Source of the DNA: Promethearchaeota archaeon
Lineage (GTDB): Archaea; Asgardarchaeota; Heimdallarchaeia; Hodarchaeales; Hodarchaeaceae
DNA length: 64,000 nt
Direction of reading: 5' to 3'
NCBI GenBank assembly: GCA_048938105.1
Contig: JBHLMN010000020.1
Span: 32,001 to 96,000 of the forward strand
Each line of letters opens with the position of its first letter. The stretch's first letter is position 1. Under the pieces are notes generated by a model. It was not told where the DNA came from. It did not search any database and saw only the letters and a program-made list of their open reading frames with translations. Both the position numbers and the translations under genes were made by a program. This document shows, piece after piece, positions 449 to 10,591 of the stretch.

Positions 449-1471
449 ATGTATGAGTTAAAATTCGATGAAAAAACATGTGAAACATGTCCAACTGCTG
501 ATTGCCTCTCTAGATGCCAATATATCGATATTGATAAAGACATAGCAAAGACAGAAATAAAGAAAATGATTTCTGGGGAAGATTCGTTTGTGTTACATGA
601 TTGTGTAACGTGTTATGCTTGCGAGGAGTACTGTAAGAGAGGTAATCACCCATTCTATTTAATCACTGATCTTCAGGAGGAAAGAGGGATTCTTCCTATG
701 CCTAAGCCCCTGAAGACCCAATTTGTCAACATATCAGTACCAACAAGAAGAGACATTATCCAATTTTATGGTGCTGAAGAACCAGTTATTTCTCTGTGCC
801 TTTTTCCTCAGTATACTCGGTTATTTAGCGAAGATAAATTCTTTGAGGAGCTCTCTATTATTATAGGACGTTACTTCTTTTGCCATCTTATGTACCTTCA
901 CTCTGGTAATCCCTCATTGATTCGAGAGAAGCTTCCAACAATAATAGAAAATATTGCAAATCACGGATTCAAAGAGGTAATTTTCTTCCATGATGAATGT
1001 TATTCAACATTAACTTCCTATGCAACAGCTTATGGTATTGAAGTTCCTTTCAAACCCATTCATTTTAATGATTTTCTTTACAATAGATTAAAGGAACAGC
1101 AAGAGAAGATACAGCCCTTAAACGCAAAAGTGGCTTTCCAACGAAATTGCTCTGCTCGTTTAACTCCAAATGTAGAGTATCTTGTTGATGACATCTTCAA
1201 TTTAATAGGAGTTGAGAGAGTGGAAAGAAAATACGACAGAGAGAATGCACTCTGTTGTGGGGGTGTGATTAGAGGCCAACAACGATATGACCTCTTTATT
1301 GATGTCCAAACGAGAAATGTTGACGATATGGTGAATGCTGGTGTTGAATATTGCGTATTTCAGTGCCCTGCTTGTTTTGATTATCTCTCGGAGAAGGTTG
1401 CGGAGAAAGGAATCAAACCGATTATGATGCATGAACTATGTCTACTTGCTTTACAAGGACGTGATAAATAA
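449..1471 (+). CDS. Fe-S binding CCG-domain protein (GlcF/HdrD-like)
   Basis: N-terminal Cys clusters (CETCPTADCLSRC, CVTCYACEEYC), CCGG and CPAC of a CCG domain; stop overlaps next start (TAATG). Confidence 0.85.
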   Translation: MYELKFDEKTCETCPTADCLSRCQYIDIDKDIAKTEIKKMISGEDSFVLHDCVTCYACEEYCKRGNHPFYLITDLQEERGILPMPKPLKTQFVNISVPTRRDIIQFYGAEEPVISLCLFPQYTRLFSEDKFFEELSIIIGRYFFCHLMYLHSGNPSLIREKLPTIIENIANHGFKEVIFFHDECYSTLTSYATAYGIEVPFKPIHFNDFLYNRLKEQQEKIQPLNAKVAFQRNCSARLTPNVEYLVDDIFNLIGVERVERKYDRENALCCGGVIRGQQRYDLFIDVQTRNVDDMVNAGVEYCVFQCPACFDYLSEKVAEKGIKPIMMHELCLLALQGRDK

Positions 1472-2850
1472 TGCAATCTATATACAATTCTTTGACCAAA
1501 ATTGTAGAGGAGGAGTTTGTTTCAAATCAAAAAGAAGAGCTTTACATCTACTCTCAAGATCCAGGAATGATGGAACCTCATGAACCAGATTTTGTTGTGA
1601 TGCCTAAAACTACAGAGGAGATCCAACAGATAGTTAAACTTGCGAACAAGGAAAAAATACCCATAGTTCCAGTGGGAGGTTCATTAAGTTTGTCTGGTTT
1701 GGTTATCCCTCATCAAGGAGGGATTGTAGTAGATTTAAGAAGAATGGATAAGGTGTTAGAGGTTAATGAAGAAAGTAGGTACATTGTATTTGAAGCTGGG
1801 TTAACTACTGGTAAATTAAAGGCTTATCTGGAAAAGCATCATCCCTTGTTACGTTTCTCGATACCTGATGCTCCTCCTTCCGCGACTGTAGTTGGAAATA
1901 TTGTAATTCATGGTCAAGGACGGTTAACTCAACAATATGGGTTTAATTCTGATCTGGTTACTGGATTGGAGGTTGTTTTGCCAACTGGAGAAGTCTGTAA
2001 GATTGGTTCTGCCTCTGTCAGTCCTTATTGGTTTTCACTTGCTCCTCTACCTGATCTGGCGGGACTTTTCTTAGGATGGTTTGGAACAACAGGTATAATT
2101 ACTAAAATGGGTCTAAAATTATTTCCTAAAAAGAAATTGAGAGACATTGAAGTATTTACAGTAGAGGATCCCAACCTAGTTCCAAATGTGATCCAAAGAG
2201 TGACTCATACTGAAATGAGCGAAGATATTTTTACTGGCGCTCAACCGTATCCACCCGTATTCAAAGATATCATAATGATAGGAATTCTTTTGACAGGAGA
2301 TTCGAAAAAGGAGTTAGAATTTAAAAGAAAGATGATTTGGAAGGCTCTCCAATGTCATATCGATAGTAAAGAGGGAGGTTTCATGATGATGACCCCAGAT
2401 GTAAAACAAGACTTGTTAGAGATGCCAACTAGTAGTACAACAAGATTTGCAGATGTAATGAAAGGGGGAGGATTTGAATACTGTGGGCCTATTATTCCAG
2501 TGGAAAAATATCCAGAAGCCTTCAGAAGATTACTTGAAATAACAAAGAAATATAGAATTACTTTTGGTAATGCAGGACGAGTCATTGGTCGAAGTCATTC
2601 CATGATGTTTTCTTTTGGTTATCCCTTCAATCGTGCTGATCCAGAAAATATTGAAAGAACGAAGAATGCGTTACATGATACAAATGTAGCAAGTTTGGAC
2701 ATCGGAGGTGTACCTTGGAAACCTGAGGTTCCTGCACAAAGAATGATCATGGAACGGATGGACAAAAATACGCTTGAACTGATGCAGCGGATAAAGAAGG
2801 TGCTTGATCCAAATGGAATCATGAATCCAGGTAATTGGGAGGTTAAATGA
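1471..2850 (+). CDS. FAD-linked oxidase/dehydrogenase, GlcD/D-lactate dehydrogenase family
   Basis: PDFVVMP..EEIQ, VPVGG.SLSG, GLEVVLPTGE, GTTGIIT, C-terminal LDPNGIMNPG. Confidence 0.9.
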   Translation: MQSIYNSLTKIVEEEFVSNQKEELYIYSQDPGMMEPHEPDFVVMPKTTEEIQQIVKLANKEKIPIVPVGGSLSLSGLVIPHQGGIVVDLRRMDKVLEVNEESRYIVFEAGLTTGKLKAYLEKHHPLLRFSIPDAPPSATVVGNIVIHGQGRLTQQYGFNSDLVTGLEVVLPTGEVCKIGSASVSPYWFSLAPLPDLAGLFLGWFGTTGIITKMGLKLFPKKKLRDIEVFTVEDPNLVPNVIQRVTHTEMSEDIFTGAQPYPPVFKDIIMIGILLTGDSKKELEFKRKMIWKALQCHIDSKEGGFMMMTPDVKQDLLEMPTSSTTRFADVMKGGGFEYCGPIIPVEKYPEAFRRLLEITKKYRITFGNAGRVIGRSHSMMFSFGYPFNRADPENIERTKNALHDTNVASLDIGGVPWKPEVPAQRMIMERMDKNTLELMQRIKKVLDPNGIMNPGNWEVK

Positions 2851-4007
2851 TGTTCAATTACGCTGATCAAATCCACAGATGTTTCAGATGCGGTTATTGT
2901 AAATTTCCTAATAATTTTAGTGATTTCAATTGTCCCTCTTATAACAGATTCCGATTTGAATCCTATTCTACAGGGGGAAGATTATGGTTGATTTGGGCTT
3001 GGGTAAAGGGGGAAATTGAGTGGTCAGAACATTTAGCAAATGTTGTATTCTCGTGTGCAGCATGTAGAAATTGTGTAGAACAGTGTCCTATGCGTTTTAA
3101 TGATGACATTGTTGATTGGATCATTAGTGCTCGAAGTGACATGGTTGAGAAGGGACTTATCCCCCCCTTAGTTGGAGAATTCTTAGATAATGTCTACAGA
3201 TATGGTAATCCTTGGGGGATGCCAAGAAATGATAGAGATTCTTGGGCTGACGGTATAAACCGATATCAGCCTGGTGATGAATACCTTTTCTATGTAGGGT
3301 GCGCTGGATCTTACGAACAACAAGGCCAGAGAATGGCTAAATCGGTTGCTGAATTTTTACAAACCGCAGGAGTTTCTTTTGGAATCCTTGGTTCAGATGA
3401 GGATTGTGATGGGAATGAAATGCTTTTCATTGGAGAGAAAGGTTTATTCCGAGAGTTAGCTGAAAAAAATGTCAAGAAATTTAGAGAACTTGGTGTAAAA
3501 AAGATCATTACACTTTCTCCTCATGCTTATAATGCAATGAAAAACAAGTATGGTAATCTTGGGGAAATCAAAGTATACCACTATACCCAGGTTTTCTCTG
3601 AAATTCTTAGAACTAGGAACCTAGAATTATATACAATCAACTCCAAAGTAACTTATCATGATCCCTGTTTCTTGGGAAGGTATAATGGGATTTATGATCC
3701 CCCAAGAAAGATAATCAAGGGTATCCCAGGAGTTGAACTCGTTGAAATGGAGAGAACTATGGAAAATTCTTTCTGTTGTGGTGGTGGAAGTGGAAATTTC
3801 GTTTTTGACCTTTTAGGAAAATCATCAGATAGCCCCAGTAGAATTCGGGTGAGAGAAGCTCATGAAACTGGAGCTGACCTCTTGATTGTGTCCTGTCCAA
3901 GTTGCTATTGTATGCTCGAAGAAGCGATAAAAACCGAAGGATTAGAGAATAAATTGATAATAAAAGATATTTCCGAGCTCGTGATAGAATCAATAAAAAA
4001 CAAATAA
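2847..4007 (+). CDS. Fe-S oxidoreductase, GlcF/HdrD family (4Fe-4S plus CCG domains)
   Basis: CFRCGYC, CAACRNCVEQCP, YVGC, TYHDPCFLGR, CCGGG, SCPSC. Confidence 0.9.
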   Translation: MMFNYADQIHRCFRCGYCKFPNNFSDFNCPSYNRFRFESYSTGGRLWLIWAWVKGEIEWSEHLANVVFSCAACRNCVEQCPMRFNDDIVDWIISARSDMVEKGLIPPLVGEFLDNVYRYGNPWGMPRNDRDSWADGINRYQPGDEYLFYVGCAGSYEQQGQRMAKSVAEFLQTAGVSFGILGSDEDCDGNEMLFIGEKGLFRELAEKNVKKFRELGVKKIITLSPHAYNAMKNKYGNLGEIKVYHYTQVFSEILRTRNLELYTINSKVTYHDPCFLGRYNGIYDPPRKIIKGIPGVELVEMERTMENSFCCGGGSGNFVFDLLGKSSDSPSRIRVREAHETGADLLIVSCPSCYCMLEEAIKTEGLENKLIIKDISELVIESIKNK

Positions 4008-4051: not shown

Positions 4052-5494
4052 ATGCTTCTCCAGAGAAAAAAAAAAGAATTGTCTGAAGATCCATGTCGGA
4101 ATTACAATGTCCTTTGCGGAATTGAGGAAGAATTTCTAATAATCAATGAAGATGGCACGCTAGTAAATGCTGCTGATGAATTGATGGTGAGAGCTGCTGA
4201 AATTCTGGAACGAGATTCCAAACGGTTAGATTTTCTCCAACTAAAAATTCGAGGATTGGATGCTGAACCGTCACCAAGCCAAATTGAGTATGTGACTCTT
4301 CCACTTCCACCTAAAGATATTGCAGAAGCAATGAAAGCTGGGAGGAAACTGCTTTCTGATGCAGCAACGAAATTAGGATATAGAATTTTCTCTCAGAGTA
4401 TGCATCCTATACAGAGCGATCCTCATCCCATGTGCGGAACTCATATTAACGTTTCAGCCCAAACAGGGGGATTCATGAATACGGAAGAGTTAGCTGCAGT
4501 CTATAACTATCTTTGGAATTATCTTCCTGAATTAATTGCGTTATCTGCAAACACTCCTATCTTTCAAGGATCTAAGACGAATGTCGCTAGTAATCGTATC
4601 AGTAATTCGACTGTTCTCAAACCCAATGGTCCATCTCAAATTCAGATTCCCAAACGAAATGCAGCATTAATTCCTATGCAGTACTATGGTCAAATGCGAT
4701 ATACTTTACGTATAGCAGGCGAAAACGTGAAAAAAATCATAACTAATCCGAGAGGTGAGAGGCTAGTAGATATTACTCCAAGAGGACCATTAACGAACAT
4801 AGGTGAAGATGAGGACTCCGCTCTCACAACAAACCGTGTAGAAGTGAGAATATTTGATGTTCAACAGGATCTTGAGTATCTCCTTGATCTTGTTTATCTT
4901 TGCTGTGTTTCTGCTTTACATGCGATTTACCTTTATACTACAGGAAAAATCGCTCTTGATCCTAATCACAGAACTAATGTAAAACAAGCGGTTTTTAATG
5001 GTGTTAACGCCCGATTCGTACGGAATGGTAGAGAGGAGTCCTTACAAGAAAGTGTATCTCGTTGGATAAATGAAACAGAAAAATATCAAGATATGTTAGG
5101 AATTAAGATTCGAAAACTCCCCACAATCAAGACTGATTTTCAACAGGGTGAATTAGATGTCGAATTTACGACAAGAAATATTGAAGAACTGCGACAACAA
5201 GGAAAAATGTTTGTAGTAGTTCAATTGAATAAATCACGGACGATCACTGACCAACGAGGGAGAAAATATGGTATTTCTCGTGGAACTCAGTTACAAGGAA
5301 TGTTAGATGTCGATTATAAGCTCACTTACCAAGAAAAAGATAATATCGTCACTGATTTCCAGGGAATTAAAATAATTAATACACTTGATGTCCAAGGAAT
5401 AAAAATCACCTTAGACAATAAAGATCGAGTTCTTGTTGCATTAAGTAGATCGGATTATCTGTCACGAAGCCTCTTTGGTGGATTTGGTTTTTAG
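4052..5494 (+). CDS. Glutamate--cysteine ligase family 2 (GCS2/YbdK-like carboxylate-amine ligase) with extra C-terminal domain
   Basis: GIEEEFLII, QIEYVT, GTHINVS, LIALSANTP, SNR, VEVRIFD; about 120 aa beta-rich tail; true start may be the TTG of MSEDP. Confidence 0.85.
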   Translation: MLLQRKKKELSEDPCRNYNVLCGIEEEFLIINEDGTLVNAADELMVRAAEILERDSKRLDFLQLKIRGLDAEPSPSQIEYVTLPLPPKDIAEAMKAGRKLLSDAATKLGYRIFSQSMHPIQSDPHPMCGTHINVSAQTGGFMNTEELAAVYNYLWNYLPELIALSANTPIFQGSKTNVASNRISNSTVLKPNGPSQIQIPKRNAALIPMQYYGQMRYTLRIAGENVKKIITNPRGERLVDITPRGPLTNIGEDEDSALTTNRVEVRIFDVQQDLEYLLDLVYLCCVSALHAIYLYTTGKIALDPNHRTNVKQAVFNGVNARFVRNGREESLQESVSRWINETEKYQDMLGIKIRKLPTIKTDFQQGELDVEFTTRNIEELRQQGKMFVVVQLNKSRTITDQRGRKYGISRGTQLQGMLDVDYKLTYQEKDNIVTDFQGIKIINTLDVQGIKITLDNKDRVLVALSRSDYLSRSLFGGFGF

Positions 5495-5531
5495 TAATAA
5501 AACCATTGTTAATAGAAGGTGTCACAGCGGA

Positions 5532-5912
5532 ATGAAAGAAGAGCAAAGAGAGGTTACTAACGAGAAATGTGACCAATTATTCACTTATGGAACCCTACAA
5601 TCTGGATATAGTCGAAATTATCTTCTTAGTGGATTAGAATATGAGAAAGCGATTTTAGAGGGCTATCGTAAGCTTACTCCTCCCACTCTAGGTTTTCCAT
5701 TCATACTCAAAGACAAAGAATCTAATGTTACTGGTGAAATTTATTTCCAGTTAACGCAATCTCATTGGACACAAATTGATTTAGTTGAAGGAGAAGGGTC
5801 TTTATATCATAGAGTTCTCGTAGAAGTGAAAACAATCTCAAAAGGGAGAAATTTATCGGCTTTTACTTATTACCCCTCAAAAAGGCTTATTGAGGAATAT
5901 AGTGAGAAATAA
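5532..5912 (+). CDS. Gamma-glutamylcyclotransferase (AIG2/GGACT-like)
   Basis: LFTYGTL, VTGEIY, IDLVEG (catalytic Glu), LYHR, AFTY; ATG at 5532 preferred to the track start at 5475. Confidence 0.88.
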   Translation: MKEEQREVTNEKCDQLFTYGTLQSGYSRNYLLSGLEYEKAILEGYRKLTPPTLGFPFILKDKESNVTGEIYFQLTQSHWTQIDLVEGEGSLYHRVLVEVKTISKGRNLSAFTYYPSKRLIEEYSEK

Positions 5913-5915
5913 ACA

Positions 5916-6821
5916 ATGTGCCGATTATTAAGTCTTTGGGCGAATCAAAATCACAAAAAAACTTCTAGACATTTATTGAAATATTGGTTTAATGCTTGGT
6001 TGGATTCTACGAAGAAGGATCATTACTTAAACAGAGTATATGGCGTTCCAGAAGGGAATTGTGTTCACAAGGATGGCTGGGGTATTGTAACTCTTGGAAC
6101 TGATCACGATTATAAGATAATATGGGAACACAAAAATCAAGATCTAAAACCTGCTTTCTCTTACAGAAAAAATAGTCTAGCTCGATTAGTCATAGGATCT
6201 CCTTTTCTTAGATCAACACATCAAATCTTGTTAGCTCATGCAAGAAGGGCAAGTGTAAATATGCCAGTATCCCTGCAACAAGTACAACCATTACTGATTC
6301 ATGATGAAACAAGTTCAAGAAAGGTCTTTCTTAGCCACAATGGTACCCTTAATTCAAAGATTCTCAACGATATATTATATACAGAATCACATCCAATCTC
6401 AGCTCAATTTAATAATTTCTCTGACACTCAATTGTTAAGCTGGTATATCAAACAAAATCTAGAAAATAACTCTAGTAAAAACAGTATTAAGGATTTTTGG
6501 ATTCCAATTTTTCTAGAAATTATTGATAAGCATCAAGAAGACAACGTAAATTACCAAATGCAATTAATAATTTTAGAAATAACTGAAAATAATCCACAAT
6601 TAATCATTTGTTCTGCATTAAGTGATAAATCAAAAAGATTCATGCCCTATTATCGGTTATTTTTTGGAAAGAAAGGGAAATTTAGAGTAATATGTTCTTC
6701 TACGATCGTTGATCACTTTAAAAGTAATCATAAATCTTCTAACTGGGATTTAGATCCAATATCTAACAAAACTCTTGTTAATATTACCTCTGAGGGCGAA
6801 TTCTATCATGAATTATCATAA
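5916..6821 (+). CDS. Class II glutamine amidotransferase / Ntn amidohydrolase (EgtC/DUG3/YafJ-like)
   Basis: MCRLL with Cys2 nucleophile, HKDGWG, LAHARRAS, SHNG, SDT. Confidence 0.88.
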   Translation: MCRLLSLWANQNHKKTSRHLLKYWFNAWLDSTKKDHYLNRVYGVPEGNCVHKDGWGIVTLGTDHDYKIIWEHKNQDLKPAFSYRKNSLARLVIGSPFLRSTHQILLAHARRASVNMPVSLQQVQPLLIHDETSSRKVFLSHNGTLNSKILNDILYTESHPISAQFNNFSDTQLLSWYIKQNLENNSSKNSIKDFWIPIFLEIIDKHQEDNVNYQMQLIILEITENNPQLIICSALSDKSKRFMPYYRLFFGKKGKFRVICSSTIVDHFKSNHKSSNWDLDPISNKTLVNITSEGEFYHELS

Positions 6822-6860: not shown

Positions 6861-7814
6861 TTATAGTGGAAATCTCTTCATTCGGCTGTCTACCATTTGG
6901 ATGCCATACTTAACCATTTTAGGAATCCTTCCCTCCAATCCAGTTTGAATATATATCAAACCAGCACGACAATAAAGAAATTTCATCCTGTTTTTAAAAT
7001 TCCGATCTTTAGCTCTGTTATAATTTACTAACAAATGATCCAAAAAGAATTCGCCTTCATCATAAAATATGAAGTCTCCTGCTGGATCATAAACCCCTGT
7101 TTCTTCAAAATCTATTATTCCTGTTACTTCAAACGTTTTAGGATTAACGAGAACATTCGATGTATCAAAATCTCCGTGGATAACTGTTGGTATGAAATCA
7201 AAGTTTTCTTTTTCACCTAAGAATTCGAGGAATATTTGGGATACCCAGTTTTTTTGTGTTGTATCTAGCAAGGGGTAAGCATCTTTTTGTACTTTTGTAA
7301 AATAATTTTGCCAATAACACTGATATTGAGAAGGACTATACTCCCGTTCCCTTTTCCAAGTTGTACAAATTTTCTGATAGACTTCTTCTGAATGAAGTTC
7401 TGAGAGAAATTTTCCAAGTTGCATTGCAATGCTCTCTTGATCGTTTCTAGTGGTTCTGTTAAAGCGTCTGGATAAAGATATTCCATCTATCTTTCTATAA
7501 CCGATGAAAGGATCATTTGGATCAGAAGATACGAATATAGGCTTAGGAATTTGTAGAGAAATATTCTCACTGATTAGATCTAAAATTTTTGATTCTCTCT
7601 CAATTAAATTAAGTCCTTTCTTACCACCAAAGAAAATCTTATCAGGAAATCGAAACATATACTCGCCTTTAACTTCGAACACATTATAACTTCCATGATA
7701 ATGAAATTTAACTTCATGGCGTCTAATATTCGGGAAACACGACCGTAAAATTCTCATTACTTCTGATAATGAAATATTTGGTGGATTAGTTTCTTCATAG
7801 AAATCCAAAATCAA
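6861..7814 (-). CDS. Aminoglycoside phosphotransferase (APH)/choline kinase family protein
   Basis: YMFRFP, RE..IL, IHGDFDTSNVL, GIIDFEE, DPAGDF. Confidence 0.88.
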   Translation of the reverse strand: MILDFYEETNPPNISLSEVMRILRSCFPNIRRHEVKFHYHGSYNVFEVKGEYMFRFPDKIFFGGKKGLNLIERESKILDLISENISLQIPKPIFVSSDPNDPFIGYRKIDGISLSRRFNRTTRNDQESIAMQLGKFLSELHSEEVYQKICTTWKREREYSPSQYQCYWQNYFTKVQKDAYPLLDTTQKNWVSQIFLEFLGEKENFDFIPTVIHGDFDTSNVLVNPKTFEVTGIIDFEETGVYDPAGDFIFYDEGEFFLDHLLVNYNRAKDRNFKNRMKFLYCRAGLIYIQTGLEGRIPKMVKYGIQMVDSRMKRFPL

Positions 7815-7969: not shown

Positions 7970-10591
7970 ATGAAACGAGTTATACTTATTTTTCTAGGAC
8001 TATTATTGCTTTTTTTGAATGTTGGGAGTGTCAATCCATATTTAGGCGAAATTAACTTAATAAACCAAGTAGAATTCAATTTGATAGACTCATCATTGAC
8101 TCAAATAAATCAAGGTGTTTACCAATTCAGTGCAATTGTCCAAAACTCTGGTGATCCCGCAACAACAGGAGTAGTCCCGATTTCATGGGAAGAGTACATG
8201 TACACAATTCCACTTACTAAGGGTGTTGGAACATTAGATGAAAGTGTTGTGGATTATGATATTAATGGTGATGATGACAAAGATGATACATTTACTGTAG
8301 AGTGGAACGATACAATCCGGCCTTGGGATGCTGAAATTGATGGTGTTTACGTTTACGCCCTCGCTGATCACTCTGAAAACCCAGGATTCAATAGAACTTA
8401 TTTTATTGATGGAAAATCCAAACTCTTTCAAATAGGGAATGAGATGCACACTCTTTACTATGCAGACAATTATACTGCATCATTCGGATTTGGGGACGCA
8501 TTCATTCTAAACTATCCAAGTCCTAACTTTGAATTCGTGGTATACTCAGATGTCAGTTTTATAGATATCACAATAAACGGAGAAGCTGTTGAAGTCAATT
8601 ACACCCGTAGAGGAATAGAGGTCTTTGTAGACGGAACAGAATCCGCATATACAATTTGTGTTGTACCTAATCAAGCAGCAGCAATTGGAACAGATGAAGC
8701 GATTGAATTTTCTTGTACAATAATCGCTCGTGAAACAAAATCTTGTGAGGTTGCACTCTTAGCAAACTGGTCCCCAGATAGGAATATCAGATACCGTTGG
8801 GTTCCCTTTGATCAGATAGATGTATCTTTTGAAGCGATTAATCGGCCTTTCTTCATTGACACTTCAATCGATGTTATTGATGTCAATACAGGTGTGAAAC
8901 AATTAGAGGCCACTATCAAAAATATTGGTGCGCCTGCTACAACTGGAGACATACCAATAGCTTGGGAAAGACATATATATGAGGTAGCACTTGATGCTGG
9001 TACTGGTACTCTTCTAGAAGCCGAGGCTAGCTTTGACCTGAATGGTGATGGAGACTTATTAGATTCTTTTGATATAACGTTGTACCCCAATGATGGCTGT
9101 CAATATGATGCCCTAATCAACAACGGAACTCATGATATCCATGCCTACTCCACTCTCGAGGAGTGGCTCTATCGTTCATCCAACCGGTCTTATTATATTG
9201 ATGGAAAACCCAAACTCTTCCAGTTAGGCAGTCGAACTCATTCTCTTTATTACACGGAAAACGATGTTGCTTTATTAGGACTTGATGCAGTTATCTTAAA
9301 GCATCCTAGTCCGCACTTTGAAGTAATAATAGAACATGAGGGTGCATTCTCATCTATACGTGCAACAGACTTTGAAATTAACGATTTACCTGTAAAATCT
9401 AATCTCACACGAGCTATACAATACAAATCCCCTTATTCAGCAGAATTAATGTCAGATATGGCGTACATCGTCCCAAACAATGAATTTGAAGTTAATCAAG
9501 ATGAAGAAGTAACCTTTTCGTGTACATTCACAGCTCACGAAGCGAAGATATGTGATATTTATCTCGTTATGAATTGGTCTCCAGATAGTAACATAAGATA
9601 CCTTTATGTTCCATTCTTGGAAGAGGTCACATTTAATCTCCCAAATTTCATTCTAGACGATTCAACCCTCGCCTCGAGTGCACCTGGAGAATATCAACTT
9701 ACCGTGGCCGTTAAGAACAATGGTGCACCTGCTACAGCTGGTACAGTCCCAATTTCTTGGGAGAAGTTATATTACGATCTTCCTCTTCTTGATGGTGAGG
9801 GGATTCTTGAAGAAAGCATTATTGACCATGATTTGAATGGTGACGGTGATATGGATGATACATTTGATGTGAAGTGGTTTCATAATGAAACACGGCAATG
9901 GGATGCTATTATTGACAATATTCACGTATACTCCCTCTGGGAGGGTCCCCCTGAAGATCCAAGGAGCCTTGAAATCCATTACATTAACGGCATGTCGAAG
10001 CAATTTAAATTAGGTAGTGAAACCCATTTTCTCCTCAGGGCTAATAGTGAGTATGCACATTTTGGTTTCTCCAATATCGATATCATTGACCATCCTAGTC
10101 CAAATTTTGAATTATACTTCAACACAACAGAGCTAAGTGCCAACAATTTCAAAATTGATGGAGTTTCTGTTAATGAGGATTATAAATGGAGTGGACGTGA
10201 ATTCTATCCGTCGTGGAGTGGAGACAAGTTTTCCACTGTATATCTCATTCCAAGCGATTCCTTTGCCATTGACACGGGAGAATTAGTAAAATTCTCTTGT
10301 AGAATCAGTGTACATAAAGAAACTACCTGTGATTTAGTACTTCTAATGAACTGGTCACCTAATGATAACATAAGGTTACGTTGGTTCCCATATGTAGTTA
10401 CTGAAACATTTGAAGCCCCATCCATGACATCTTCTACTCCAACTACAACACCCACTACCCCTGAAACTACCCCCACAACCTCTAAAACGACTTCGGAATC
10501 AGCTCCCACTATTCCAGGGTTTTCATTCCTAACGACATTGTTGATAACACTGCCTATCTTAGTTTTCATACATCGAAAGAAAAAGACTTGA
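7970..10591 (+). CDS. Secreted surface protein with three ~260-aa repeats, Thr-rich linker and PGF-type C-terminal anchor
   Basis: Signal peptide; PAT(T/A)G.(V/I)PI(S/A)WE, D.NGD.D, PSP.FE and NWSP..NIR each occur three times; ends IPGF-TM-RKKKT. Confidence 0.85.
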   Translation: MKRVILIFLGLLLLFLNVGSVNPYLGEINLINQVEFNLIDSSLTQINQGVYQFSAIVQNSGDPATTGVVPISWEEYMYTIPLTKGVGTLDESVVDYDINGDDDKDDTFTVEWNDTIRPWDAEIDGVYVYALADHSENPGFNRTYFIDGKSKLFQIGNEMHTLYYADNYTASFGFGDAFILNYPSPNFEFVVYSDVSFIDITINGEAVEVNYTRRGIEVFVDGTESAYTICVVPNQAAAIGTDEAIEFSCTIIARETKSCEVALLANWSPDRNIRYRWVPFDQIDVSFEAINRPFFIDTSIDVIDVNTGVKQLEATIKNIGAPATTGDIPIAWERHIYEVALDAGTGTLLEAEASFDLNGDGDLLDSFDITLYPNDGCQYDALINNGTHDIHAYSTLEEWLYRSSNRSYYIDGKPKLFQLGSRTHSLYYTENDVALLGLDAVILKHPSPHFEVIIEHEGAFSSIRATDFEINDLPVKSNLTRAIQYKSPYSAELMSDMAYIVPNNEFEVNQDEEVTFSCTFTAHEAKICDIYLVMNWSPDSNIRYLYVPFLEEVTFNLPNFILDDSTLASSAPGEYQLTVAVKNNGAPATAGTVPISWEKLYYDLPLLDGEGILEESIIDHDLNGDGDMDDTFDVKWFHNETRQWDAIIDNIHVYSLWEGPPEDPRSLEIHYINGMSKQFKLGSETHFLLRANSEYAHFGFSNIDIIDHPSPNFELYFNTTELSANNFKIDGVSVNEDYKWSGREFYPSWSGDKFSTVYLIPSDSFAIDTGELVKFSCRISVHKETTCDLVLLMNWSPNDNIRLRWFPYVVTETFEAPSMTSSTPTTTPTTPETTPTTSKTTSESAPTIPGFSFLTTLLITLPILVFIHRKKKT
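8075..10420 (+). repeat. Three tandem intragenic domain repeats starting near 8075, 8849 and 9647
   Basis: Colinear conserved motifs in the translation. Confidence 0.85.

Follow-up and report, generated by a model that had tools for sequence, protein, structure and literature searches.

Transient γ-glutamylation recurs in polyamine and arylamine catabolism, in ergothioneine and butirosin synthesis and in glutathione turnover, and the glutamyl groups are removed by known members of several folds, namely the amidotransferase folds (PuuD and EgtC), the GGACT fold (GGACT and BtrG) and the FGase/PghP fold. Here we describe a candidate archaeal version, three adjoining genes for a ligase of the GCS2/YbdK superfamily, a γ-glutamyl(amine) cyclotransferase and a stand-alone class II amidohydrolase in a 64,000-nucleotide (nt) stretch, hereafter the window, of a Hodarchaeales genome (GenBank assembly GCA_048938105.1, contig JBHLMN010000020.1). 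On balance, we lean towards viewing these genes as a single operon-like module for the making and breaking of a γ-glutamyl amide. The constant feature of the loci compared below is a long-form GCS2 ligase beside an enzyme, of whatever fold, that cleaves an amide on glutamate.

Described systems with related components

The same parts list, sometimes with an ATP-grasp ligase, is found in bacterial amidoligase neighbourhoods that are also uncharacterised. A family of GCS2-sized ligases is encoded there beside a thiol peptidase that resembles amidotransferases (in proteobacteria) or an Aig2-type cyclotransferase (in firmicutes), and these neighbourhoods were proposed to serve glutathione-like peptide synthesis, not protein tagging (Iyer, Burroughs and Aravind, 2008; PMC2588565). 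The preliminary description of the locus had mentioned such bacterial proposals, and that paper bears it out: the combination is not new in kind. The Asgard module differs from the bacterial and phage neighbourhoods in its archaeal host, in its single ligase with an extra domain and in a remover that is exchanged among three folds. The cassette of phiEco32-type phages, reportedly described by Iyer and colleagues in 2009, is said to have the same parts list. When this likeness was tested, neither the ligase nor the class II enzyme had a match in PHROGs and the cyclotransferase alone matched one family (phrog_2520); none of the PADLOC models of known anti-phage defence systems matched the module proteins or their relatives. 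Our literature search found no paper on an Asgard ligase–remover module, and a review of archaeal thiols lists only Asgard matches to GshA InterPro families (PMC7278568).

In ergothioneine synthesis, EgtA and EgtC pair a GCS2-fold ligase with a stand-alone class II N-terminal nucleophile (Ntn) hydrolase that removes the γ-glutamyl group added earlier, as in the Asgard pair. However, the third protein of the window scores only 16.3 bits against the EgtC equivalog model (cut-off, 218.65), a cyclotransferase is present and relatives of the module use other removers. The preliminary description had seen no egtD in the window, and EgtD (PF10017) had no match in the 99%-complete genome that carries it either, EgtB not being part of this search. 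Ergothioneine synthesis is therefore unsupported by the EgtC score and the lack of EgtD.

The PuuA/PuuD, aniline and 1-naphthylamine systems use ATP to γ-glutamylate an amine and then hydrolyse the product with an amidotransferase-fold enzyme, and the class I/Peptidase_C26-like partner found in Loki-type relatives of the module resembles the remover of Puu-type pathways. Their ligases, however, are of the glutamine synthetase type (PF00120) and come with dedicated oxidases or dioxygenases, whereas the Asgard ligase is of the GCS2 type and has no such enzyme universally linked to it. Butirosin synthesis (BtrJ/BtrG) combines a ligase with a GGACT/AIG2-fold cyclotransferase that removes a transient γ-glutamyl group as 5-oxoproline, much like the scheme proposed here, but BtrJ belongs to the ATP-grasp enzymes and works on an amine bound to a carrier protein, and the Asgard locus has neither a carrier protein nor an aminoglycoside cluster. 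Finally, pupylation (PafA/Dop) shares the ligase superfamily and the writer/eraser logic; in the Asgard module, the erasers have different folds and need a free glutamyl head, and we saw no link to proteasome genes. No Pup-like tag was found in the 37- and 3-nt gaps of the locus, and no conserved cluster of small open reading frames (ORFs) was detected in 26 + 72 loci at an ORF floor of 60–80 amino acids (aa).

Three intact genes in a tight array

The genome carrying the window measures 5.85 Mb (contig label G000:C35), and the named close relatives of the window proteins come from Hodarchaeota/Hodarchaeales or Heimdallarchaeota, which supports an Asgard origin. Three intact ORFs, all on the + strand, occupy positions 4052-6821 (4052-5494, 5475-5912 and 5916-6821). 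The preliminary description had reported three co-oriented genes with key catalytic motifs, the third beginning 3 bp past the stop of the second; the ORF coordinates confirm this spacing, all the motifs are present and conserved, and the three enzyme assignments hold. The mechanically called cyclotransferase ORF starts at TTG 5475 and overlaps the ligase gene by 20 nt. We consider this overlap an artefact because homology begins some 20 residues into the TTG-started ORF, where its relatives start to align, and because ATG 5532 has GGTG ahead of it. The true start is probably ATG 5532, leaving a gap of 37 nt after the ligase gene. The trio may have its own promoter, as suggested by a TATA-like AAATATTA in an AT-rich stretch 35–42 nt before the ligase ATG.

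A discrete family of long-form GCS2 ligases

GCS2 (PF04107) was the sole family returned for the ligase by the Pfam scan (E-value 1.6e-10, 41.3 bits against a cut-off of 21). The protein falls below the cut-offs of all curated NCBIfam YbdK and GshA models (TIGR02050, NF010039-45), with a best score of 61.8 against 176.4 and the others at 22–48 against 332–437. Residues G23-x-E25-E26-E27, E72, Q77, E79, H118, H131, N133, R237, D240 and R262-x-E264-x-R266 are invariant in an alignment of 25 ligases reaching down to 35% identity; they include the GhExE signature (G23/E25-E27) and the ExR motif (R262-x-E264-x-R266). The AlphaFold model (predicted local distance difference test, pLDDT, 81.5) superimposes on the Salmonella YbdK homologue 1tt4 with a VIA Z-score of 25.1 and a root-mean-square deviation of 3.6 Å over 302 aligned residues, and Foldseek gives E 3e-12 to 1tt4/1r8g. 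Plant and bacterial glutamate–cysteine ligases follow at Z 19.8–15.4, Dop and PafA score 17.6 and 14.8, respectively, and the matches to glutamine synthetase-type folds include γ-glutamylmethylamide synthetase (GmaS) and 1-naphthylamine glutamine synthetase.

The catalytic core spans approximately residues 13–365 and carries an insert, a conserved basic/aromatic β-hairpin at about residues 205–220. It is followed by a small β-barrel (about residues 370–465) and a conserved hydrophobic tail (LFGGFGF). This C-terminal part has no Pfam match, and residues 365–480 gave no usable match in the protein atlas. In the model, the barrel weakly resembles those of SH3b, WYL and the BirA C-domain (Z 4.2–5.2), which is no more than a common small-barrel arrangement. 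Short proteins that match this C-terminal domain alone were considered as stand-alone domains and rejected, as they look like gene fragments. Compared with YbdK (E. coli 1r8g, Salmonella 1tt4), the Asgard ligase has the same catalytic fold and the same GhExE and ExR motifs, but it is only ∼16–18% identical and ∼110 aa longer, with the hairpin insert, barrel and hydrophobic tail; unlike YbdK, it is almost confined to Asgard archaea and has a remover gene adjoining.

A profile search of 1.84 billion representatives recovered about a dozen clusters of full-length ligases scoring 314–819 bits, the next-best proteins being GCS2-like proteins of ∼360 aa at no more than 74 bits. The ligase thus forms a discrete family, given this drop in score. 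Screening a single genome for each prokaryotic species, we found 71 loci of this family, nearly all from Asgard archaea (Hod-, Heimdall-, Loki/Prometh-, Thor-, Hermod-, Sif-, Borr-, Baldr- and Njord-archaeota); a few ligase-bearing metagenome-assembled genomes (MAGs) are labelled Geothermarchaeota, Nitrososphaeria or Bathyarchaeota. The ligase is present in 43 of 300 sampled Asgard genomes and in 9 of the 19 other genomes of the window's genus. On these counts, it is an accessory gene with a patchy distribution, which would fit an accessory metabolic module. A second GCS2-like segment is found in the window's genome, in a 988-aa protein (L132:4681-7647 (+); G000:C53) whose gene is preceded by one for an amidohydrolase-like protein and followed by one for a CDC48_N + VWA protein; this looks like a separate uncharacterised system.

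The cyclotransferase and the thiol alternative

The second protein matches the GGACT family (PF06094; E 6e-15, 56.3 bits against a cut-off of 22.8) and the AIG2-like protein 2jqv (E 6e-4). Both the Y19-G-T-L motif and the catalytic E86, the glutamate of IEGEG, are conserved in the linked copies. This assigns it to the GGACT/AIG2 family, which acts on γ-glutamyl-amines, and not to ChaC. The gene lies 3′ of the ligase gene in 44 of the 69 loci from other species, typically after a gap of 20–40 nt. Linked-type copies (at least 55% identity) occur in 10 of 10 ligase-positive genomes of the genus, always adjoining the ligase gene, and in 0 of 11 ligase-negative ones, counts that include the window's own genome and, like those by locus, come from kin genomes and so are descriptive, not a statistical test.

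The same genome encodes a GGACT paralogue (L133:6677-7048 (+); G000:C27) after a gene for a TFIIS/RPB9-type zinc ribbon protein; it is 31% identical to the linked copy and lacks the catalytic glutamate (HG for EG). At two loci (L065:5496-7043 and L109:5460-7043, both +), a GH77 4-α-glucanotransferase gene lies between the ligase and cyclotransferase genes, and no hydrolase gene is found within 4 kb.

The family assignment bears on one alternative, namely that the ligase is a GshA-like enzyme making γ-glutamylcysteine or a related γ-glutamyl thiol peptide, which the partners would turn over in the manner of ChaC/GGCT and Dug3 with glutathione in a γ-glutamyl cycle. Its nearest folds are indeed YbdK and the glutamate–cysteine ligases (Z 25 to 15), YbdK is a weak γ-Glu-Cys ligase (Lehmann 2004, as cited in PMC13674229), haloarchaea use a GCS2-type GshA (PMC7278568) and the GshB/RimK-like ATP-grasp protein of the basal ligase clade (see below) recalls the pairing of GshA with GshB. 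Nevertheless, we regard a role in thiol metabolism, which would be the special case of the scheme proposed below with Cys as the amine X, as unlikely. At 43–62 bits against cut-offs of 176–437, the ligase stays far under the curated GshA/YbdK models, its patchiness even within one genus would be odd for the main redox buffer and the cyclotransferase is not of the ChaC type. The window's genome also lacks the basal-clade ATP-grasp protein and EgtD, and its GSH-S_ATP matches are weak, with no clear GshB.

A class II hydrolase restricted to one subclade

Sequence matches of the third protein stay below threshold, at 22.4 bits for GATase_6 (PF13522; cut-off 27) and 18.3 for GATase_4 (PF13230; cut-off 23). 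It nevertheless begins with Met-Cys and keeps the class II Ntn motifs (Cys2, DGWG, AHARRAS, HNG and SDT), with Cys2, R110/R111, N142-G143 and D170 invariant or nearly so among its relatives. The residues that grip the α-amino-acid head of glutamine or of a γ-glutamyl group are among those retained. Its model (pLDDT 74.9) matches PurF (1ao0, Foldseek E 3e-10) and EgtC (4zfk, E 1e-9), and the predicted fold is that of a class II (Ntn) glutamine amidotransferase.

Only 25 relatives of this enzyme, at 50% identity or more, were found in 5.8 billion clusters, and those with a name come from Hodarchaeota/Hodarchaeales or Heimdallarchaeota; five complete genomes from other clades yielded no copy of it. 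Six genomes of the genus carry full-length copies, all adjoining the ligase and always directly after the cyclotransferase gene. One genome of the same genus has the ligase and cyclotransferase genes, but all that is left of the class II enzyme is a C-terminal remnant of 176 aa at a distance of 1.3 Mb (G240:C1:1174758-1175159 (-)). The distribution suggests that the class II enzyme is a late addition in one Hodarchaeales subclade and not a general component.

Exchange of the remover among unrelated folds

For the neighbourhood census, we called ORFs, built profiles from recurrent neighbours and scored these across the 69 ligase loci of other species. At least one neighbour able to cleave glutamyl amides was found in 67 of them. 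A class II enzyme with a cyclotransferase is seen in only five loci, those of the closest Hodarchaeales relatives. A class I amidotransferase accompanies the cyclotransferase in 31 loci and stands alone in 10, an enzyme of the N-formylglutamate amidohydrolase (FGase) family is present in 14 (one of which also has the cyclotransferase) and seven have the cyclotransferase alone, three of them being cut by contig ends. Flanks are short at both loci with no remover. In the class I partner, which keeps the Cys-His-Glu triad, we found a match to PF00117 (E 5e-17) and a weak one to Peptidase_C26; its best curated match is GMP synthase subunit A (57–72 bits). The FGase partner matches PF05013 and, weakly, a poly-γ-glutamate hydrolase, keeps the His/Asp/Glu metal motifs and is encoded either divergently from the ligase or directly upstream of it, often with a 4-nt overlap. 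The window's own genome has no FGase and no homologue of the ATP-grasp protein of the basal clade.

In a ligase tree rooted on five GCS2-like outgroups, the type of remover tracks the clades, those linked to FGase being basal. They are followed by a supported split (Shimodaira–Hasegawa-like approximate likelihood ratio test, 99) between a Loki-type clade with class I partners and a Hodarchaeales clade, in which the cyclotransferase is the sole remover on the early branches, with the class II enzyme appearing later (support, 95). As the tree was built quickly and some of its branches are long, the order of these events is provisional. Either type of remover appears to be enough by itself, as certain clades carry a single one.

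A fixed ligase whose remover is swapped among three unrelated folds is strong comparative evidence of a functional pair and offers biochemistry a clean handle. The preliminary description had proposed one ligase with two chemically distinct removers; that logic holds, but the class II enzyme, being limited to one Hodarchaeales subclade, is not a general part of the system. The genes might have been neighbours by descent only, working in unrelated processes, and the class II gene is in fact limited to closely related genomes, in which synteny is expected. However, the ligase–cyclotransferase pair is retained down to ∼50% ligase identity in several Asgard classes, the position of the remover has been refilled by unrelated folds and the genes are closely packed (gaps of 3 to ∼40 nt, with several FGase–ligase pairs overlapping by 4 nt). 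Conservation across classes and the refilled position exclude pure synteny in practice, and we consider a purely incidental arrangement extremely improbable. Lack of co-conservation would have counted against the module in the preliminary description; the genes proved to be co-conserved, the full-length class II enzyme occurring only beside the ligase and analogous removers with different folds being present in the other clades.

Class I and class II amidotransferases share a glutaminase function, which makes their mutual replacement natural and raises the alternative that the class II enzyme (class I in the Loki-type loci) is a glutaminase that feeds ammonia to a ligase amidating a carboxylate, as in GatCAB and GatDE. 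The match of the class I partner to GMP synthase subunit A and the membership of GatB/GatE in the same ligase superfamily (PMC2588565) are in line with this. Such a glutamine-dependent amidoligase would leave the FGase partners (14 loci) and the cyclotransferase (44 loci) unexplained, and an amidotransferase is missing altogether from four loci with full context. In the known cases, a class II glutaminase is fused to its synthase, while the stand-alone ones such as EgtC are γ-glutamyl hydrolases, and we think this possibility unlikely.

Several other neighbours were set aside. Candidates for a fourth remover in cyclotransferase-only loci, one of 266 aa encoded upstream in L039/L040 and one of 380 aa encoded downstream in L038, were rejected as membrane proteins unrelated to any hydrolase profile. 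A co-oriented SPFH/stomatin pair downstream in Loki-type loci and neighbouring genes for TFIIB, inositol-phosphate synthase and a methyltransferase were judged unrelated, and Ras-family GTPase genes near the ligase, in about four independent contexts, were ascribed to their abundance in Asgard genomes.

Other genes found at the ligase loci

In five Sif/Borr species, the FGase partner carries a fused archaeal histone fold at its C terminus (PF00808; NF043032, 51 bits against a cut-off of 50), as in L113:2970-3815 (-) and also L111, L112, L114 and L115; a histone-bearing amidohydrolase is unusual. In a basal clade of Baldr- and Njord-archaeota and related MAGs, an ATP-grasp protein of 365–420 aa with weak likeness to MptN/GshB/RimK/TTL is encoded co-oriented with FGase and ligase, on either side of them (L121:1782-3035 (+), also L122, L123 and L124). 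Geothermarchaeota-labelled MAGs have an EMG1/NEP1 rRNA methyltransferase gene directly upstream of FGase and ligase and co-oriented with them (L125:2278-2967 (+), L126, L128 and L129).

A double-cubane/HGD-D pair with a BcrAD-type activator lies directly upstream of the ligase gene in 25 of 41 class I (Loki-type) loci, e.g. L042:9552-12960 (-), and four loci have an extra HGD-D copy after the class I gene, translationally coupled in L084 by a 4-nt overlap. In the window (Table 1), the three packed genes directly upstream of the ligase resemble a split 2-hydroxyacid dehydrogenase of the YdiJ/GlcDF type and are found there in only some close relatives. The kinase gene is convergent with the class II gene across a 39-nt gap and keeps this position in four of six Hodarchaeales-type loci, one of them at 80% ligase identity.

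Table 1. Predicted products of the module genes and of flanking genes in the window
Product	Position	Strand	Evidence
GCS2/YbdK-superfamily ATP-dependent carboxylate-amine ligase, long form, 480 aa	4052..5494	+	PF04107, fold, invariant residues
γ-Glutamyl(amine) cyclotransferase, AIG2/GGACT family, 126 aa from ATG 5532	5532..5912	+	PF06094, YGTL, catalytic Glu
Stand-alone class II (Ntn, N-terminal Cys) amidohydrolase, EgtC/PurF-N-domain fold, 301 aa	5916..6821	+	Motifs, model fold
CCG-domain protein, GlcD-like FAD oxidase and Fer4 + 2x CCG protein (three genes)	449..4007	+	
APH-family small-molecule kinase	6861..7814	-	
873-aa protein	7970..10591	+	No Pfam domain; weak C-terminal Heimdall-CTERM signal (20.1 bits, cut-off 24)

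Predicted function

In the proposed scheme, the ligase would use ATP to activate a carboxylate and join it to an amine X, yielding γ-Glu-X; if the ligase behaves like all of its close structural relatives that have been characterised, the donor would be the γ-carboxylate of free L-glutamate. The cyclotransferase would free X by cyclising the glutamyl group to 5-oxoproline, and the Ntn hydrolase would release X, or a modified form X′, by hydrolysis to glutamate. The module would then serve for transient γ-glutamylation, in which X is protected or activated, transformed and released, or for controlling the level of an amine compound. It combines a distinct ligase family with a lineage-specific Ntn hydrolase and is real, intact and conserved in Asgard archaea, with a chemistry that, by analogy, would be ordinary.

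The analysis establishes how the genes are ordered, that their catalytic residues are intact, which folds they have, that they are co-conserved and that unrelated folds have replaced one another as the remover. Glutamate as the donor, the nature and size of X and the form on which each remover works are inferred. X would most probably be a small metabolite bearing an amine, because the characterised stand-alone class I/II relatives of the removers all, to our knowledge, act on small molecules, because the cyclotransferase is of the γ-glutamyl-amine type, because the module is accessory and patchy and because no tag or target gene is linked to it. An intermediate step might be contributed by the redox enzymes encoded alongside, much like PuuB/C in the Puu pathway, but we do not count them as parts of the module since they vary from clade to clade and some close relatives lack them.

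Several points weigh against this assignment. None of the enzymes that could carry out an intermediate step is linked to the ligase throughout. The flanking oxidoreductases differ between clades (GlcD-like FAD and CCG iron–sulfur proteins as opposed to double-cubane/HGD-D proteins) and may reflect mere synteny. The co-occurrence counts are non-independent, coming from related genomes. The class I and class II amidotransferases could be glutaminase subunits, and the SH3-like domain, the histone-fused remover and the RimK/TTL-like ATP-grasp protein could indicate a macromolecular substrate.

The last point leads to a protein writer/eraser, in which the ligase would place a single γ-glutamyl group on lysines or other protein amines, the Ntn hydrolase would erase it and the cyclotransferase would clear the γ-glutamyl-lysine left after proteolysis. 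PafA and Dop are structural relatives of the ligase (Z 14.8–17.6), its extra small β-barrel is ancestral and its basic hairpin conserved, the FGase partner bears an archaeal histone fold in five Sif/Borr species and a TTL/RimK-like ATP-grasp gene is linked in four basal loci; moreover, a mark carried by a protein is chemically feasible, as a free glutamyl head is all that the removers require. However, these observations are circumstantial, the neighbourhoods show neither a small ORF resembling a tag nor a conserved gene that might encode the target, the matches of the C-terminal domain are weak, known GGACT enzymes act on free γ-glutamyl-amines and the known stand-alone class I/II relatives act on small molecules, so that we hold a protein substrate to be improbable. 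We are just as doubtful about its fuller form, a reversible Asgard post-translational modification in which the ligase barrel would dock proteins, possibly chromatin or ribosomal ones, single γ-glutamyl groups would be put on lysines and the linked hydrolases would erase them. If true, the archaea nearest to eukaryotes would possess a writer/eraser pair for proteins that has no relation to TTLL/CCP glutamylation.

Implications

The module would be the first archaeal, GCS2-based case of transient γ-glutamylation, and one nearly confined to the closest prokaryotic relatives of eukaryotes. Naming the amine would define a new Asgard metabolite or modification; should the target be a protein, it would amount to a reversible protein mark of a new kind.

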